Part shown: positions 46,824 to 61,181 of the stretch, piece after piece | How the letters are laid out: every line of letters begins with the position of its first letter | How positions within the stretch are numbered: the stretch's first letter is position 1 | Source of the DNA: Escherichia coli | Lineage (GTDB): Bacteria > Pseudomonadota > Gammaproteobacteria > Enterobacterales > Enterobacteriaceae | Assembly: GCF_024223415.1 (NCBI RefSeq) | Contig: NZ_CP100501.1 | DNA: 64,000 nt | Strand: one strand, 5' to 3' | Position numbers and translations under genes: made by a program | The notes under the pieces: generated by a model | The model's input: the letters and a program-made list of their open reading frames with translations, nothing else | What the model was told of the DNA's origin: nothing | The model's database searches: none

Positions 46824-47993
46824 TCAGGAGGAGGATATGAAAATACTGTTCGCTTTTGTCATGAACTGGCTGTTTGTTAACGGACAAATCATGACCCGTT
46901 CATCAATGTTTGCGGGTAGCTCGCCTGGTGTGGGGACGCGTTCACCCCGCTGAGCAGCCTGGGCCAGTGCGCGCAGCAACAATACGCTGGCGTGAGATAT
47001 TGCCAGTTCCCGGGTTTCAGCACGGCTTTCAAGGTCGAAATCGTGCAGTGTCACAATGAACACTCCGTTTCTGTTTCTGACAGTTGCAGGGTAGGGAACA
47101 AAATAAGGGGAAATTTTGCTGGTCTGTTTACGCCTTGCATCGAGTTTACTGACCAGGTGATATGCCCGGAGATGTGTGTACCGTTTCAACATGTTCAGGG
47201 AGCGGTGACCGGAAATGGCTGCAATCTCCATAACGTTCAGTGTGCCGAGCTCGAACAGACGGCTGATGGCCTCATGGCGGAGATCGTGAAAATGCAGATT
47301 TTCTATTTTCAGATCCAGAAGAGCGGTACGCCAGGCGCTTTTGAAACCGGACGAGGTGTAATTGAACACATTGCCGTTTATCTGTTGTGGCAGAATTTGC
47401 AGGTAGTTACGTGCTTTCCGGGAGAGTGGTACGTCGCGTGGTGAGCCATTTTTCGTTTCAGGAAGATGCGCCACGCCGTGCTGCAAATCGAGGTGTTCCC
47501 AGCGTAATGAGAGAATTTCTCCCTGGCGCATTGCTGTTTCCAGAGCCAGATGGAAGATAACGTAGAGCTGCGGATTTTTGTCCCTGAAATAGCGGGAAAG
47601 GCGGCGTTCTTCACCAGAAGTCAGTCGGCGGTCGCGGCCATTACTGATTTTCGGTTTTCGGACCAGTTCAACAGGATTCATACGGCATGTTCCCCATTCC
47701 ACACGGGCGATATTGAATAATGATGATAAAAGGGCAAGTTCAAGACGGACGGTATTTCCGGTGATTTGACGCCCTGTTCGTGGGTTAATTTGAGCTAAAC
47801 GCTGATCCCGGTAACCGGCGATATCAATGGTAGTGATTTCATCCATATAGCGCTCGGCCATAGGGTGACGTTTAATCACATTGACGCGATAAAACTCCTG
47901 CAGATGACCTTTTTTATGGACGGAAACGGTTTTCAGGTATTTGTCCAGCGCCCGGTTGAGAGTCATTTTGCGAATTTTGATTTTTCGAAACAT
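46824..47993 (-). CDS. rci: shufflon-specific tyrosine recombinase Rci
   Basis: Start taken at [30 protein letters not shown]...; C-terminal catalytic region with HxxRH and Tyr ([10 protein letters not shown]...LKRYTHL); adjacent to 19-bp sfx repeats. Confidence 0.85.
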
Positions 47994-48055
47994 ATCTGCC
48001 TTCCACGATAAAAACGGGGAAGGTAGGAATAGTGAAACGGAAATGCAATATCGCC

Positions 48056-48074
48056 GTGCCAATCCGGTTTGTGG
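48056..48074 (+). repeat. shufflon sfx 19-bp repeat (GTGCCAATCCGGTTTGTGG)
   Basis: Matches the recalled sfx pattern GTGCCAATCCGG followed by a variable arm. Confidence 0.8.
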
Positions 48075-48281
48075 CTTGGAGGCAATAAAGTGAACTATTC
48101 TGCCTGTAAATGGTATGAAGCGACCTCCGCACATTTTATCGGTGGCAGAAGTGGAGGTTCTATTTATTACAAGCCGATTCAGTGCCCTGCCGGGTACGTC
48201 ATGACAGGTACAAGAATGTACGGCATCGGAGATGGTGTTGATGAAGAGCACGTCGATGCTTACTGTTGCCCTTTTGGTTAG
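48069..48281 (+). other. alternative PilV C-terminal coding segment carried on the invertible shufflon segment (silent in this orientation)
   Basis: Cys-rich ORF on the opposite strand inside the sfx-bounded segment. Confidence 0.6.
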
Positions 48282-49525
48282 ATTCCGGCACCAGGAAGGT
48301 TGAGGCATGTGACTGATATGGTCCCACCAGACTCATAATTTCCCCAAGCATAATTACTCACATACCAAACGTTGTTTTGGTCGGAATATACCTGTTGAAA
48401 ACCACCAAAGGGTGAGCCATTCAGGTAAGTCCATGAGCAATATGCATGGACCCCGAGCCTTAAATTACGAGTGTTTTTAGCTATGTTGTAGGTCTGCGTT
48501 GTGAATTGAATTTTAGGAGCGCCCCAGGTACCGGATTGGCACGAAAGTATTGCCCCTTTACTGTCGCGGCCTACAAGTCCGTCCGGTGAGCAGGAAGTAC
48601 CTGCGGTGGCTGTTTTTTCCAGCTGTAAATACTCACCTGTGGAAAGACGACCGTCAGACCGGATCGTTCCACCGCTGACTTTGCCCCCTTTGATTTCACC
48701 ACCGGTGGTGATCCCTTTGTTATTGACGGCGCGTATCCACTGGCTGTCCGTCATGGTGAAACCGCCTCCGTGCGTCGTGTTCATCCACCCCTTGTTGTTT
48801 CTGGTGATAAGCCAGCCGTCTTCGCTGGTTATATAGCCTTTCACCGTGGCTTTCTGACCATTGAGGTTACCGGCGTTATTGATGTCATTTCCGCCCATGT
48901 TGATAGCTGTGTGCATCTGGTTCAGCTCTGATCTCCCCGGGACCTGGAAACGATACAACCTGTCGCTTTCCTGCAGATCATCACCCGTCATGACGACGGC
49001 AATGTGACCTGCCGAACAGGTGAGTCCGTAATCCCCCGGTTTGTCTGTCCAGGCGCCGAATGCGCCGGTTGCTGTTCCGTTTTTACCAATATAACCACCC
49101 AGCCCGGGAAGCAGTCCTGCCACACTGCGCAGACCATCTTCTTTGATATTCTGCCCCCCTGTTGAGCAGGTCAGGGCTTCAAGACGTCCTGTAGTCTGGT
49201 TACGGCGGATACCCGTGATATAACTCTGCCCAAACGGAGAATGATTAAATCCCTGTTTCAGGTATCCCTTGCGAATCAAATCATCGGCTGTAAAGTTTGC
49301 CGGAAGGCTGCCGTTGTGCAGAGTGGCATTGTTATCGGCAATGTAATTTCTGGCTGCGGTATTGTAGGCATCTGCATGAGAAGCAGCACTCTGGTAAAGC
49401 TGTTCATTCAGCCAGTTTTCTATTTCGGAATAAATCAGCGGCGTGGCGATACCAATCACTATCAGTCCCGCCAGTATTTCAAGCAGAATAAAACCTTTGT
49501 CGTCATCGTGTCTGAACTTTTTCAC
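48278..49525 (-). CDS. pilV: PilV thin-pilus adhesin/minor pilin with shufflon-encoded C-terminus
   Basis: Prepilin-like N-terminus ([17 protein letters not shown]); Gly-rich body; 3-prime 80 codons lie inside the invertible segment. Confidence 0.8.
48524..48542 (-). repeat. shufflon sfx 19-bp repeat in inverted orientation (reverse complement GTGCCAATCCGGTACCTGG)
   Basis: Read directly; lies at the constant/variable junction of pilV. Confidence 0.8.
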
Positions 49526-51309: not shown

Positions 51310-52476
51310 TTATTGTTTCAGCATGTCGCTGATACTGTAGATGGCAGATATCATGTTAAGAATAAAAAAGAAGACAAAACCTCCTGATATACCAGTAATA
51401 ATTAATCCAATTCGTTTTACCCGTTTTTTTGCTTCCTCCAGCCACTGATCGGCATAGAGTGCCATGGTTGCCACACTGTCCTCCCTTTCGGAGTTCAGGA
51501 GCAGTTTATTGATGCATATTCTGGACGGAAAATCGTAACCGGAATTTCGCATTGCTGTGGCCAGATTCTGACCGGATAATACATGTTTTCGTATTGCCTG
51601 AATTCTCTCCTTTAACCATTTATTCTTTTCTGCACCTTTTTCCATTCGGAGCAGCGCCTGCGAAAGAGGAATATTAATCTGCAGCATGGATGAAATACTG
51701 AACAGATAATTCACCCCGTGTAAGGTCTGATACAGTGACCAGGGGGGAGCCTTGTCCAGCATCCTCCGGCCGGGGCCGGTATACCGGCTGAATGAAAAAC
51801 GGATCAGAAGCGTCAGGGCGAAAATGGTCCCACAGAGCCAGAATCCGTACCCGATGAAAAATTCCGACATGCCGGCAAGCAATTTCATCTGGAATGACCA
51901 TTTATCTTCTGAAGCAAACGCACTGACGATGGGGATGATACGGGTATGGGCGTTGTACATATTCACCACACAGAGCGAAAGCAGCAGAAGGGGGTAGAGG
52001 CAGACGGCAATGAGGCTGGATGTCATTTCCCGCCGGGCTTTAACGGTTCTGGCCACCTGGAAAAGGGCGTCGGCAATATTCCCGCGCTCTTCCCCGTTTC
52101 TGATTAACGTGGCTTCCTCCGGTGGCACCCAGGTGAACAGGGCACCGGATAACATGCCGCTGGCTTTGATGGACGCGATGCATTCTTTTGCCAGAAAATA
52201 CATGCCGGATGTGCCTTTCTTTTCACCAAAATCGGTTTCGATCTCGCAGAGAAATTCGAGGGCACGCAGGGACGGCGTTCCGTCACGTATCATGCCGCCC
52301 AGGGCTTCGTAGAACTCCACCCGGTTCAGGGCAAAGGTTTTTCTGGCCATCCAGATGGTCAGCGCTGTCAGCTCAATGTCGGTGCTGTTGAGTTTTTCCA
52401 GAAATTTCATATCAGTGCAGCAGCGTATAGCTGTCCTCATCGACGGGAGAGATGTAATGGGCCGCCAGCGGATCAA
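51310..52476 (-). CDS. pilR: PilR inner-membrane platform protein (GspF/PilC-like)
   Basis: 388-aa polytopic membrane protein directly downstream of the ATPase gene. Confidence 0.7.
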   Translation of the reverse strand: MIRWRPITSLPSMRTAIRCCTDMKFLEKLNSTDIELTALTIWMARKTFALNRVEFYEALGGMIRDGTPSLRALEFLCEIETDFGEKKGTSGMYFLAKECIASIKASGMLSGALFTWVPPEEATLIRNGEERGNIADALFQVARTVKARREMTSSLIAVCLYPLLLLSLCVVNMYNAHTRIIPIVSAFASEDKWSFQMKLLAGMSEFFIGYGFWLCGTIFALTLLIRFSFSRYTGPGRRMLDKAPPWSLYQTLHGVNYLFSISSMLQINIPLSQALLRMEKGAEKNKWLKERIQAIRKHVLSGQNLATAMRNSGYDFPSRICINKLLLNSEREDSVATMALYADQWLEEAKKRVKRIGLIITGISGGFVFFFILNMISAIYSISDMLKQ

Positions 52477-53920
52477 CCTGTCCGCTGTTGATTTTTCCCA
52501 GCAGATGCTGATTACGGGTCATTCCGCCCAGTTCCCGGTGCCAGTAGGTTCTGGCCTCGATACGCCCCTTTTCCCGGTACAACTGGAAAAAACGCGCATC
52601 CGGGGAGATAACTTCTGCGATCACCGTTCGCCCCGTCACGCCACGCCAGCAGTGCGGGCAGCCGTCATGGTTTCGCAGATATACCTGGTCCGGGTTACAG
52701 ACGCTTTCCACCAGGCGCCGTTCATCATCCGTGCGCTCGGTAGCCACCTCATGCCAGGGGCGACGGCAGTGCGGACATATCAGCTGAACCAGACGCTGGC
52801 TCAGCAGGCCAATGAACAGTTGCGGGTCGGCAATCATCCTGGCCTGTACCCCCTCCATCTCAAGACGTTCGAGGATGTTAATCGGGTCGTTCGCATGAAT
52901 GGTGGTCAGCATCAGATGGCCGGTCATGGCGGCTTTTATTGCCGTAATGGCGGAATCGTGGTCGCGGATTTCACCGTTCAGGATCCCGTCGGGGTCAAGA
53001 CGCAGTGCCGATTTGATGGAGTCCACCCAGCCCTGCGCGGTATCCATGACGGCGGTCTGAATGGCACCGGGTATACGGCCCTCTGGCGGGGATTCAATGG
53101 TGAACAGCCTGCGACGGGGCAGAAGAATACCGCCGGTATTGTTGAAGCCGTACTGTTCAAGGTACGCCGCAGAGGCGGTTCTCAGCGTGGTGGATTTTCC
53201 TGAGCCGGTGGGGCCTGAGAGCGTGATAATGCCTTCAGGGCGCTGCAGAATGCGGCGAAGAGTGCGCTCCTGGTCAGGGTGATAGCCCAGCATACTGAAG
53301 GTCGGGATTTGCTGACTGTCATCCTTGATCAGACGGAGCACAGCATAGAGGCCGCCCACACAGGGGTAGTGGGAGTAGCGTGCACCAAACAGACCGGCCA
53401 GTTTCAGATACTGCTCTGAAAGACGTGCATCCTGAGGCACCCCGGGATCAAACTGTGTGCCCTTGATAACATCGGTCATGCCGGAATAGGTGGCCCCCAG
53501 TAATTCGAGGCCTTCTTCTTTCCGGAGGATATCGAGCACTTCCAGTTCGCCGTGAACCCGGGCTTCCACATAGGTGAAGTCCGTGTTGTCTCGTCCCGGG
53601 GTCATATGAAGGTCTGAGGCACCAAGAGAGGCAGAATGGCGGATATAGCCGAGCATTTTTTGCTGTACCGGGTTAATGACGCTTTCATCACCGGCGGTTG
53701 TGGTGTCCTGTCTGAGGCGGGCTATCACATCCAGGGTGGTGAATTCAAAGTCTCCCACACGCCCCTGATGACGTGCGCGCAGGCGGGTCAGATATTCCTG
53801 GACGGCACGCAGATGTTTTTTTCCCTCCACGACCCTGACCCGCAGATGACCGGTTTTATCTGTGTCGATAGCCACATAATCCAGAATGTCATCCGGTGGC
53901 AGGTCTGCAGGATCCAACAT
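52412..53920 (-). CDS. pilQ: PilQ type IV pilus assembly ATPase (GspE/PilB family)
   Basis: Walker A SGPTGSGKST; tetra-Cys motif CPHC...CPHC. Confidence 0.8.
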   Translation of the reverse strand: MLDPADLPPDDILDYVAIDTDKTGHLRVRVVEGKKHLRAVQEYLTRLRARHQGRVGDFEFTTLDVIARLRQDTTTAGDESVINPVQQKMLGYIRHSASLGASDLHMTPGRDNTDFTYVEARVHGELEVLDILRKEEGLELLGATYSGMTDVIKGTQFDPGVPQDARLSEQYLKLAGLFGARYSHYPCVGGLYAVLRLIKDDSQQIPTFSMLGYHPDQERTLRRILQRPEGIITLSGPTGSGKSTTLRTASAAYLEQYGFNNTGGILLPRRRLFTIESPPEGRIPGAIQTAVMDTAQGWVDSIKSALRLDPDGILNGEIRDHDSAITAIKAAMTGHLMLTTIHANDPINILERLEMEGVQARMIADPQLFIGLLSQRLVQLICPHCRRPWHEVATERTDDERRLVESVCNPDQVYLRNHDGCPHCWRGVTGRTVIAEVISPDARFFQLYREKGRIEARTYWHRELGGMTRNQHLLGKINSGQVDPLAAHYISPVDEDSYTLLH

Positions 53921-54016
53921 AAGGCCTCCTTACGGGCAGCGGCGCCCGGAAAATATGTTTTCTGTTATTAAGCGAGGGAAATAATCAGTTCTTCTGCGGA
54001 GAGAATCTGGACATTT

Positions 54017-54691
54017 TCAGCACAGGCTTAACAGTGTAAAAATGATTACGCCTCCAAAAGCGAATAACAGGGGAATGTTTTTCTCCGGCTGTGTTGATCT
54101 CAGCGTTAATACCGGTGTGGCGAGAGCGTAAAAAATAATACCTGCGGTATAAATAAAATAAGGTGTGATGCCGGACAGATTACATACACTGGCGAATATC
54201 ATAAGCATGACGGCAACTACCGATAAAATAATGGAAGTATTCTTCCATTCACCAGATGGTGTAAGTGAAATGATATCGCCATCCTGTTTATAGTTCGTGT
54301 TCAGCTTCAGGAAATGACGGATATCTTTCAGCGTGTTCAGTTTCTGCTGGATCTCTTCCACAAGTTCCTGTCTGTCGGTTTTTTCACGGAGCAGCTGGAA
54401 TTTTGTCTCCCTCAGTACAGATATAATACGGTCCACCTGGCCGGGGGAGGGATAGTAATGATGTTCGAGCATCCACCGGATATCGGCGATTAACCGGTCA
54501 GTTACCGGTGTATTACCGTTGTTAATGAGAGGTGTTTCGTGCATCCACTGAAATATGCGGTAGATATGTTGCTTAACAAAAATAAAATCATCGGTGGTTT
54601 TATTCTCCAGCATGAGATATATCCCGTCGAGTGTTAATAATAAAACGTCCCGGGTGTGAGGTGATTTGTGATGTATTGTACGGAATATCAT
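54017..54691 (-). CDS. unassigned ORF between pilP and pilQ: soluble N-terminal domain of about 150 aa followed by two C-terminal TM helices
   Basis: 224-aa ORF, same strand as and close to neighbours; no pil homolog recognised. Confidence 0.45.
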   Translation of the reverse strand: MIFRTIHHKSPHTRDVLLLTLDGIYLMLENKTTDDFIFVKQHIYRIFQWMHETPLINNGNTPVTDRLIADIRWMLEHHYYPSPGQVDRIISVLRETKFQLLREKTDRQELVEEIQQKLNTLKDIRHFLKLNTNYKQDGDIISLTPSGEWKNTSIILSVVAVMLMIFASVCNLSGITPYFIYTAGIIFYALATPVLTLRSTQPEKNIPLLFAFGGVIIFTLLSLC

Positions 54692-54708
54692 TTCTGCACT
54701 GTAATCGT

Positions 54709-55263
54709 TTACGCAGGTGATATATCACACCAGAGTAAATACAGCGGAATGAAGCTGTAGAGTGACCAGAAAAGCCCGACGGGATCTTTTGCCCACAGGC
54801 ATAAGAATGTCAGTCCGGTGCACCATGCGCCGGCAAGTGCCGCGCATAATTCAGCGCCTCCGGAATTGCCGCTCTTCATCATATAACAGAGCGCGATCAG
54901 CAGTGGGATAATGAAGACGAGCGGCAGGACAAAGGATTCGGCTGCGGATATCCATTCCCGGTAACGCCAGCGGTCGTTTAATCTGTCGGCATCATATTTC
55001 AGACAGTTGCTCAGGAACGCCAGATCGTTCATGAGGGGGGCGTCCTGGCCATACTGCGCCGCGAGGCGCATTCTGGCACCCCACAACCGGGCACTCAGGG
55101 CACGGAGTTGTGCCGGGGTGACCTGTTTTCCCCGACAAAGTTGTACCTGTAATTGTGTTGCCTCGTGGACAATATCTGTGTGGTTCACCCCATATTCTGC
55201 AGCGGCTGTTTCCAGGTCACGGATGATCAGGCTGAGCCAGGATATCAGTTCACTGATGTTCAT
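54709..55263 (-). CDS. unassigned ORF between pilP and pilQ: soluble N-terminal domain of about 115 aa followed by C-terminal TM helices
   Basis: 184-aa ORF, 17 bp upstream of the next ORF; no pil homolog recognised. Confidence 0.45.
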   Translation of the reverse strand: MNISELISWLSLIIRDLETAAAEYGVNHTDIVHEATQLQVQLCRGKQVTPAQLRALSARLWGARMRLAAQYGQDAPLMNDLAFLSNCLKYDADRLNDRWRYREWISAAESFVLPLVFIIPLLIALCYMMKSGNSGGAELCAALAGAWCTGLTFLCLWAKDPVGLFWSLYSFIPLYLLWCDISPA

Positions 55264-55311
55264 TGTCGTTCATCCTTTTGTACGGACAGCCGCCTGTACT
55301 GGCGGCCGGTT

Positions 55312-55764
55312 TCATGGTCGCAGGGTTTTTCTGATGCCGGACTGCTCCAGTACCACACTGTCCGGTGTGATTTTCTCCACGAGATAAGGGGTTCCGGGGA
55401 TGTTCTGGCCCGTCTTCACATCGGTGATGTGTCCACCCGAAAGTTCTATCCGGGCGCTCAGCTGAGGCTGTACACCAAATATTTCTGTCAGACGGGGGGA
55501 TGTCGCCGTCGACGGGGCAGTCGGGATGGCGGACGTGCTTTCCTGCGGACGACCGGGCTCTGCGGGAATACCCTGCTCCAGCATGCGCAGTTCATGACGG
55601 ATTTTCTCTCTCGCCAGCATGGCTTCATACAGGGCTGTTTCGTCCTGTATCCGCTCAATCTGCAGTTGCCGGGGACTCTGTTCCTCTGCGTTTCCGGTTG
55701 TGGCCATTGCCGTTGCCGGTAACAGCAGCGCTGAAACCAGAAGGGCTTTTGTTTTAGCGTGCAT
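55312..55764 (-). CDS. pilP: PilP-like periplasmic protein
   Basis: 150-aa product with signal peptide MHAKTKALLVSALLLPATAMA; synteny after pilO. Confidence 0.6.
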   Translation of the reverse strand: MHAKTKALLVSALLLPATAMATTGNAEEQSPRQLQIERIQDETALYEAMLAREKIRHELRMLEQGIPAEPGRPQESTSAIPTAPSTATSPRLTEIFGVQPQLSARIELSGGHITDVKTGQNIPGTPYLVEKITPDSVVLEQSGIRKTLRP

Positions 55765-60353: not shown

Positions 60354-60749
60354 ATGATAAAGAAGATGTGGCGTTATTTACGGCAAATTGATAAGTATGA
60401 ATTGCTGCAGCAGGTGATTTCAGTACATGAAGTGGAACTGCTCAGGAAAATGATGACAGATTCATTATTAGGGTGCTCAGTAGGATATGTGTTTTCGAAA
60501 ATACTGAAGATATCCTTTCTGCGTTTTATTCAGTCTGAGGGGGGATGGGATATTATTACTTACTTTTTGTGGATGCTGGGAATACTTATTGTCATGGCCG
60601 CGCTGTTTATCTGGATGTGCGCCGCTGTATGCTATGAGCTTCGGATGTATAAAATAAAAACAGGAAGGGAGAACGATATATTATTCTGGGTGTGGATTCT
60701 TCTTTTTGATGTCGCGGTTGTATTTTCGCTGGGTAATGTTATCTGGTGA
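60354..60749 (+). CDS. hypothetical membrane protein (AT-rich module, plus strand)
   Basis: 131-aa ORF with GAGG Shine-Dalgarno; short soluble N-terminus plus TM helices; convergent with the next ORF. Confidence 0.4.
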   Translation: MIKKMWRYLRQIDKYELLQQVISVHEVELLRKMMTDSLLGCSVGYVFSKILKISFLRFIQSEGGWDIITYFLWMLGILIVMAALFIWMCAAVCYELRMYKIKTGRENDILFWVWILLFDVAVVFSLGNVIW

Positions 60750-61181
60750 TTATGGGTTCAGTGACATATGGAAAAAGATAAGTGCGAACATTGATACTGA
60801 AGAATAATATATCCAGGAATAGAAAAACATGAATTTCGGAGATGGTTTCTTCTGTCTCCTGTTTTTCAGGGGAGTCTGTGGGTCAAATGTTATCAGCGTC
60901 ATTAAAGGATACCCTTTCATAAGAATAAAAATATAGACGCATAAATGAGCGTAAAGAGGTAACCTGTCCTGCCAGAACAGAATCATCATGATGACGGCAA
61001 GATGAAATGTCGTTACATTGATATAATAAAACCAGCTGTATTTACGCAGATACTGTTGGATATTCACGCTGTCAGCATGCGGTTCTGGTGAACAATTTAT
61101 GCAAAAACAGAAGAAAGAAATGATGATGAACACGGTCAGAGTGACCGGTAATACAGTCACAAGCAGAAAGAGTATGGACAT
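60750..61181 (-). CDS. hypothetical polytopic membrane protein (AT-rich module)
   Basis: 143-aa strongly hydrophobic product; GGAG upstream; 3-prime end touches the preceding ORF. Confidence 0.4.
   Translation of the reverse strand: MSILFLLVTVLPVTLTVFIIISFFCFCINCSPEPHADSVNIQQYLRKYSWFYYINVTTFHLAVIMMILFWQDRLPLYAHLCVYIFILMKGYPLMTLITFDPQTPLKNRRQKKPSPKFMFFYSWIYYSSVSMFALIFFHMSLNP

Follow-up and report, generated by a model that had tools for sequence, protein, structure and literature searches.

A paralogous gene pair between pilP and pilQ of an IncK2-type Escherichia coli plasmid and its relatives in conjugation operons

In plasmid R64, pilP and pilQ of the thin-pilus (pil) operon are separated by a gap of 10 nt, and no gene lies there. 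In the 64,000-nt stretch of Escherichia coli DNA analyzed here (contig NZ_CP100501.1; referred to below as the window), two co-oriented genes, which we call A and C, occupy this junction. A preliminary description of the window, which had correctly noted that R64 has no gene at this position, proposed that the two encode either undescribed pilus accessory proteins or an inserted membrane module such as an exclusion, immunity, or abortive-infection pair. The question raised by this locus is therefore whether A and C belong to the machine whose operon they share or are cargo carried within it.

The host plasmid and genes A and C

The window derives from an IncK2-type E. coli plasmid. A 1.5-kb stretch around A and C matches about 110 E. 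coli plasmids at 99.9 to 100% identity; MOB-suite types these plasmids as IncK2/Z, MOBP, and MPF_I, and they include IncK2 poultry reference plasmids such as pTMSA1088. IncK2 plasmids carry blaCMY-2 epidemically in poultry and in humans (PMC5350095), and anything coexpressed with the IncK2 mating pilus could affect plasmid spread or host cost. The gene order on the minus strand of the window is pilL, pilM, pilN, pilO, pilP, A, C, pilQ, pilR, pilS, pilT, pilU, pilV, and rci. The earlier assignments of pilL to pilV match the RefSeq annotation of the near-identical plasmids (99.9 to 100% identity), in which A and C are both labeled "hypothetical protein." This pil operon is far from that of R64 (45% amino-acid identity for PilQ, 40% for PilN, 34% for PilP, and 23% for PilO), a distance in keeping with published work that divides I-complex plasmids between two clusters, IncI1 and B/O/K/Z (PMC10286972).

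The two open reading frames (ORFs) reported earlier between pilP and pilQ are indeed present and co-oriented, at positions 54709 to 55263 (184 aa) and 54017 to 54691, and the reported gaps of 48, 17, and 96 nt follow from these coordinates. The length of 224 aa given for the second ORF does not stand. Homologues of C from six other contexts begin to align at the Met encoded at window position 54613, the upstream ATG at 54691 is replaced by ACA in a sister allele, and the NCBI annotation pipeline (PGAP) also gives C as 198 aa. Together, these observations indicate that C most likely spans positions 54017 to 54613, so that the gap between A and C becomes 95 nt instead of 17 nt (Table 1). The sequence AAGGA lies 9 nt 5' of the ATG of A, and a weak GGGA lies 8 nt 5' of the ATG of C, with AGGA at that place in the sister allele.

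Table 1. Coordinates of the pilP-pilQ junction in the window and of related features at other loci
Feature	Coordinates	Strand	Remarks
pilP	55312..55764	(-)	Upstream neighbor, outside the cassette; annotated in 99.9%-identical pTMSA1088
Left spacer	55264..55311	(-)	Contains GC hairpin GCCGCC-AGTACA-GGCGGC and AAGGA, the ribosome-binding site of A
Gene A	54709..55263	(-)	184 aa
A-to-C spacer	54614..54708	(-)	95 nt; slot of antisense gene B in other cassette copies; includes the nonconserved ATG at 54691
Gene C	54017..54613	(-)	198 aa; the earlier 224-aa ORF, with its start corrected
Right spacer	53921..54016	(-)	Small hairpin CGGGC-GCCGCT-GCCCG at its end, with TAAGGAGG, the ribosome-binding site of pilQ
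pilQ	52412..53920	(-)	Downstream neighbor, outside the cassette
Direct repeat of the chromosomal ICE	L007 9776-9948 and 11951-12123		pilO 3' end and pilP 5' end
Fourth small membrane ORF	L004 10863-11165; L005 12106-12384; L011 9963-10253		IncF copies of the cassette

Both proteins had been read as a soluble N-terminal domain followed by C-terminal transmembrane helices, and Kyte-Doolittle hydropathy and AlphaFold2 agree with this reading. Hydrophobic segments were found by the Kyte-Doolittle scale at residues 111 to 129 and 139 to 157 of A and at residues 128 to 146, 153 to 171, and 180 to 198 of C, and in the AlphaFold2 models of both proteins, four helices at the N terminus precede long helices at the C terminus. 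Hydropathy and AlphaFold2 together predict a four-helix N-terminal domain of about 100 to 120 residues, with no signal peptide, in A as well as in C; after this domain come two predicted membrane helices in A and three in C. The N-terminal helical domains probably face the cytoplasm. A also carries a conserved C-terminal motif, KDPVGLFW..YSFIPLY.

The lower GC content of C relative to pilQ, likewise noted in the preliminary description, was recovered (43.0% versus 57.5%), but it is not unique to C, as pilS and pilT are also at 43%. Promoter-like sites occur at chance level (5 seen versus 3.4 expected). Terminator-like sites number 9 versus 3.6 expected; on the operon strand there are three, all of them weak, with 3 G-C pairs each, and within the coding sequences of A and C. 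Given their co-orientation with the pil genes, the short spacers, and the lack of a convincing terminator, transcription from the pil promoter probably continues through A and C.

On sequence evidence, A and C are distant paralogues. Their family profiles align over 132 collinear columns with an hhalign probability of 87.8%, which becomes 96.4% (E = 1.2e-9) once distant members join the C alignment, and the HMM profile of each matches the family of the other, down to E = 5e-11. In Foldseek searches of AFDB50, the nearest neighbors of A and of C outside their own family are, reciprocally, members of the other family, and a distant locus (L026) likewise carries a tandem pair of family members. 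The paralogy of A and C, their constant adjacency, and their architecture point to an A-C complex of the inner membrane, in which the two proteins probably cooperate as a hetero-oligomer.

Selection on these genes was assessed with Nei-Gojobori estimates of dN/dS. The values were 0.24 to 0.29 for C and 0.44 to 0.62 for A (three comparisons each) and 0.22 for gene B of the fuller cassette described below (one comparison); core pil and tra genes gave 0.05 to 0.32 in the same comparisons. These values indicate that A and C are both real, maintained genes under purifying selection, with A evolving fast, above all in its fourth helix. The preliminary description had allowed that the ORFs might lack conservation and ribosome-binding sites; instead, dN/dS is below 1, and both genes are preceded by the sites noted above.

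Relatives in transfer operons and the pilP-pilQ junction of sister plasmids

About 15 independent contexts of A and C relatives were recovered. Relatives were seen in Enterobacterales only, and every recovered context lies inside a conjugative-transfer or mating-pilus operon, with the genes co-oriented with the host operon. The commonest home of the cassette is between traU and trbC in F-like plasmids, a position found in MPF_F (F-type) plasmids from Salmonella, E. coli, and Klebsiella as well as on metagenomic contigs. One I-type (MPF_I) plasmid has the cassette directly upstream of traH/traI/traJ, another has it between traK and an LPD7 gene, and in other MPF_I operons it follows a DUF6750 gene within the traR-traU interval. 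One integrative and conjugative element (ICE) with a TraI_2 relaxase in the E. coli chromosome carries it between pilO and pilP. Among PLSDB plasmids positive by tblastn, nearly all are predicted to be conjugative (163 of the 164 with A and 147 of the 149 with C).

The order A, C is the same in the other contexts, and most of these loci carry a further gene, B, between the two on the opposite strand. B encodes a protein of 224 to 296 aa whose N-terminal part has membrane helices and whose C-terminal domain is basic and bears the motif RYGGKTRYR...H.N.F...R; the ICE, most IncF copies, and loci L014 and L028 have it. A profile of B matched ICE, IncF, and MPF_I copies of the cassette but found no match in the window, where only 95 nt separate A and C (Table 1). 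B is also absent from the sister allele and from one IncF-type locus, and it is frameshifted in three other loci, in two of which A and C are both intact. Decay also affects A and C elsewhere: locus L005 has an IS3 insertion in A together with a truncated C, and locus L006 has a frameshift in C. In every context, the GC content of each cassette gene is constant, at 51 to 54% for A, 36 to 38% for B, and 42 to 44% for C. The IncF copies have, in addition, a fourth small membrane ORF (92 to 100 aa, with a ...KLFPFAL... motif) between C and trbC (Table 1). It is absent from the window and may be a further cassette gene.

Searches for known relatives of these proteins gave little. By BLASTP, A and C were similar to none of the 14 Pil proteins of R64 (best E, 1.4 to 2.0), and their family profiles compared with R64 PilJ and PilK by hhalign reached a probability of 0.1 to 1.1%. 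A PADLOC scan of A, B, and C returned no family at E ≤ 1, scans of the three against Pfam, NCBIfam, and PHROGs yielded nothing usable, and PDB sequence searches with four profiles gave no natural match. A and C had no Pfam or NCBIfam match to the type II toxin-antitoxin proteins RelE/ParE. Profiles of A, B, and C run against the 49-kb tra/pil region of R64 (L013, which includes excA and traS) did not match ExcA or TraS; a match of the B profile to R64 TraD (E = 0.001 to 0.004) was set aside as too weak for use. A phage origin was likewise rejected, as no relative was present on IMG/VR viral contigs. In the literature on the pilP-pilQ junction, on ORFs between traU and trbC, and on I-complex pil operons, we found no description of A, B, or C genes, and the one relevant transposon screen, on a related plasmid, concerned a plasmid that has no cassette and assayed surface mating alone (PMC10286972). 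The family is undescribed, yet it fits a known kind, namely, accessory cargo within conjugation operons. The analysis defines an unannotated protein family that is confined to conjugation operons and has moved among F-type, I-type, and type IVb pilus loci, which makes it a natural marker by which exchange between transfer systems can be traced cleanly.

Plasmids with the window-type pil operon have five states of the pilP-pilQ junction. The first is A-C as in the window, and the second is a further A-C allele at the same junction, with amino-acid identities to the first of 86% (A) and 83% (C). In the third, the first ~210 nt of A are followed by an antisense relE/parE pair and then by the same right-hand spacer; an example is the IncK2/Z-typed plasmid pS19_651-b (NZ_CP075854; L002 4142-4921), which keeps a 72-aa N-terminal remnant of A and both spacer ends. 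The remaining two states are "empty." One is a deletion scar (NZ_CP027600; L024 775-885) in which the ribosome-binding site of A is joined to the last ~35 nt before pilQ, and the other, of ~103 nt, consists of the hairpin and the last ~65 to 70 nt of the right spacer and occurs in p3521 (NC_014843; L025 779-905) and pMS7163B. Based on an evenly spaced sample of 977 hits, we estimate, rather than count, that the cassette is present in about 110 plasmids, relE/parE in about 16, and an empty junction in about 325.

A different arrangement was observed in NZ_CP027341 (L003 4138-4663), in which the match to the window stops within A and traY and excA are annotated next. This layout implies a large deletion in which the 3' end of A, C, pilQ to pilV, rci, and much of tra were lost.

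In the ICE copy (L007), a 173-nt direct repeat, its two copies 94% identical, flanks the cassette and the plasmid-type spacer ends that the cassette retains on both sides (Table 1). The direct repeat and the spacer ends suggest that the ICE copy was derived from a plasmid pilP-pilQ junction, inserting by recombination from a plasmid-derived intermediate, and, as this copy has B, that its plasmid ancestor had B too.

Weighing the explanations

Because the cassette has been deleted or replaced in sister plasmids, we read A and C as cargo rather than as a component of the thin-pilus machine. We put it at somewhat better than even that they are dispensable mobile cargo of transfer operons, forming an inner-membrane pair. 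Of the two proposals in the preliminary description, it is thus the inserted membrane module that is favored, since the same genes occur in F-type and I-type tra operons and at another pil junction in the ICE and since the junction is empty or otherwise filled in sister plasmids. Undescribed accessory proteins specific to the thin pilus found no support, given the sister plasmids without A and C and the homologues in unrelated operons, and the picture of thin-pilus assembly is unchanged. The A-C pair of the window is the remainder of a small portable cassette whose fuller form is A, antisense B, and C. One copy entered the pilP-pilQ spacer of the B/O/K/Z branch of the I-complex plasmids; a B-containing copy apparently passed from this plasmid junction into the E. 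coli chromosomal ICE along with the plasmid spacer ends, and the plasmid pilP-pilQ copy lost B later. Against the cargo reading, A and C are intact at the same junction in two diverged I-complex lineages, which fits co-option by the thin pilus as well.

What the cargo might do is more tentative. The A/C complex may be protective or modulatory in cells expressing the transfer apparatus and take no part in building the pilus, a possibility that we hold with low confidence. Candidate roles would include immunity to the membrane protein B of related elements, an exclusion-like function, and the damping of envelope damage. Weakly in favor of such a role are the patchy distribution of the cassette, the toxin-antitoxin pair that has taken over the same slot, the rapid evolution of A, and the loss of B while A and C persist. 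On the other hand, persistence at traU-trbC across very diverged F-like systems suits an accessory role in conjugation as well as a role in conflict, A, B, and C match no defense, toxin, immunity, or exclusion family in the databases scanned, and the higher dN/dS of A could be mere relaxed constraint. We also consider, as a speculative and rather unlikely scheme, that A-(B)-C is an unrecognized conjugation-coupled membrane system of F-like and I-type plasmids that acts as a two-state switch. Because B is antisense, read-through from the transfer operon would shut down its expression, leaving B to the transfer-off state and the A/C pair to the transfer-on state. Such a switch could govern immunity or exclusion, the integrity of the donor envelope, or how susceptible the cell is to pilus-dependent invaders, and the IncK2 version would keep the transfer-on half only. 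A, C, and the antisense B form a short list for direct deletion and expression work.

The main rival to the cargo reading is that A and C are nonessential inner-membrane modulators of whichever transfer machine hosts them, acting on assembly, pilin handling, or expression of the F pilus and its type IV secretion system (T4SS), the I-type T4SS, or the thin pilus. The strict association with transfer operons across MPF_F, MPF_I, and type IVb pilus loci, together with the long stay at traU-trbC, supports modulation as well as it supports protection, and some copies sit in fixed slots, for example, after the DUF6750 (TraR-slot) gene. Purifying selection on A and C points the same way, and F-like and IncM tra operons offer a precedent in small membrane ORFs that are not essential yet change how efficiently the plasmid transfers (PMC6112013). 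However, the three machines have no common components that would be an obvious target for one protein, R64, pCTX-M3, p3521, and pMS7163B all transfer well with no cassette, and the cassette decays repeatedly, so that we judge modulation unlikely, if still worth serious attention. A narrower version, in which A and C are accessory proteins of the B/O/K/Z-type pil operon integrated with PilO, PilP, PilQ, and PilR, would explain why they lie within that operon, co-oriented, with short spacers and no terminator, and why they are intact at pilP-pilQ in two diverged plasmid lineages. It is very improbable, as most sister plasmids with the same type of pil operon have no A and C (by the rough estimate, 110 with and ~325 without), a toxin-antitoxin pair has replaced them in one lineage, their homologues are mostly in the operons of unrelated machines, and they are similar to no Pil protein.

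At the other extreme, A and C might be functionless passengers left after the loss of B and retained only because their deletion would disturb the translation of pilQ. B is missing from the window, the pilQ ribosome-binding site is supplied by the right end of the cassette region, A evolves fast, and pseudogenized copies exist elsewhere, all of which this explanation would accommodate. We nevertheless find it improbable: both frames are intact in ~110 plasmids and in a second allele whose proteins have diverged by 14 to 17%, dN/dS is well below 1, and clean deletions that preserve the pilQ ribosome-binding site exist, so that retention is not forced. A last alternative, which the preliminary description had itself raised, is that A and C are the pilJ and pilK of R64 in a new place. 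The sizes are roughly alike (150 aa for R64 PilJ and 196 aa for PilK), and no clear pilJ or pilK is seen in the pilI-pilL interval of the window. This equivalence was ruled out at the sequence level (BLASTP E ≥ 2 and hhalign probability ≤1.1% against both), and we give it practically no credence.

Comparison with known systems and further observations

The cassette resembles, in kind, the small ORFs of F-type tra operons (trbA, artA, trbE, trbJ, trbF, trbI, and others), which encode short inner-membrane proteins, are mostly co-oriented with the operon, and are dispensable for transfer. artA is antisense to the F tra operon, as B is in the fuller cassette. The two sets are unrelated in sequence: when ORFs from all six frames of four IncF tra regions, which include trbA, trbE, trbJ, trbF, trbI, traQ, and trbB, were searched with profiles of A, B, and C, only the cassette genes matched. 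The cassette also differs in crossing F-type, I-type, and type IVb pilus operons, which the small F tra ORFs do not.

The relE/parE pair of pS19_651-b is comparable in another way. It occupies the same pilP-pilQ slot between the same spacer ends and, like A and C, is dispensable cargo of the pil operon. In contrast to A and C, its products are soluble, unrelated proteins encoded on the opposite strand, and it stands in place of the entire C gene and the 3' part of A. Exclusion proteins (ExcA of IncI and TraS/TraT of F) are also comparable with A and C, as membrane proteins of the transfer region that bring a conflict-dependent benefit and tend to diverge quickly, but A and C have no similarity to R64 ExcA or R64 TraS, the two proteins of this kind that the comparison covered. 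Another IncK2/Z-typed plasmid encodes ExcA beside TraY.

The product of orf36 in the IncM plasmid pCTX-M3 has been described as a 221-aa protein with three membrane helices and no homologues, encoded within the tra operon; the gene is not essential, and deleting it increases traH transcripts and mobilization (PMC6112013). This description is like that of C, yet no member of the A/C family is detectable on pCTX-M3, and a link to its orf36/orf38, which are alike in description and position, was rejected on this ground. At the orf36 site of pCTX-M3, between traL and traM (NC_004464; L029 40436-41030), RefSeq annotates antisense genes of the Hha and H-NS families, and the phenotype of the orf36 deletion may be due to these genes.

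R64 PilJ and PilK are, like A and C, small proteins encoded in a thin-pilus operon, with poorly defined roles; unlike A and C, they are encoded upstream of pilL, in the pilI-pilL interval of R64, and the two pairs share no similarity. The corresponding interval of the window holds two AT-rich membrane-protein ORFs, one of 131 aa at 60354-60749 (+) and one of 143 aa at 60750-61181 (-). Neither is similar to R64 PilJ or PilK, and RefSeq calls only the plus-strand one.

The ends of the cassette have features of their own. A GC hairpin (GCCGCC-N6/7-GGCGGC) lies at window positions ~55282 to 55299 (-), just 3' of the pilP stop codon. Its stem is invariant and its loop variable in every B/O/K/Z-type (cluster-2) junction variant and in the ICE, into which it moves with the cassette. 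No T-run follows it, so it is not an obvious terminator. Short GAA-N2-ACA motifs are present at both cassette ends in the window.

At the far end of the operon, the longest ORF of the rci recombinase gene in the window (46824-48308, minus strand) encodes 494 aa and begins directly 3' of pilV. In pTMSA1088, RefSeq gives Rci as a 389-aa product, and the distance between pilV and rci is ~2 kb. On this difference in spacing, the shufflon arrangement is apparently unlike between the window plasmid and pTMSA1088.
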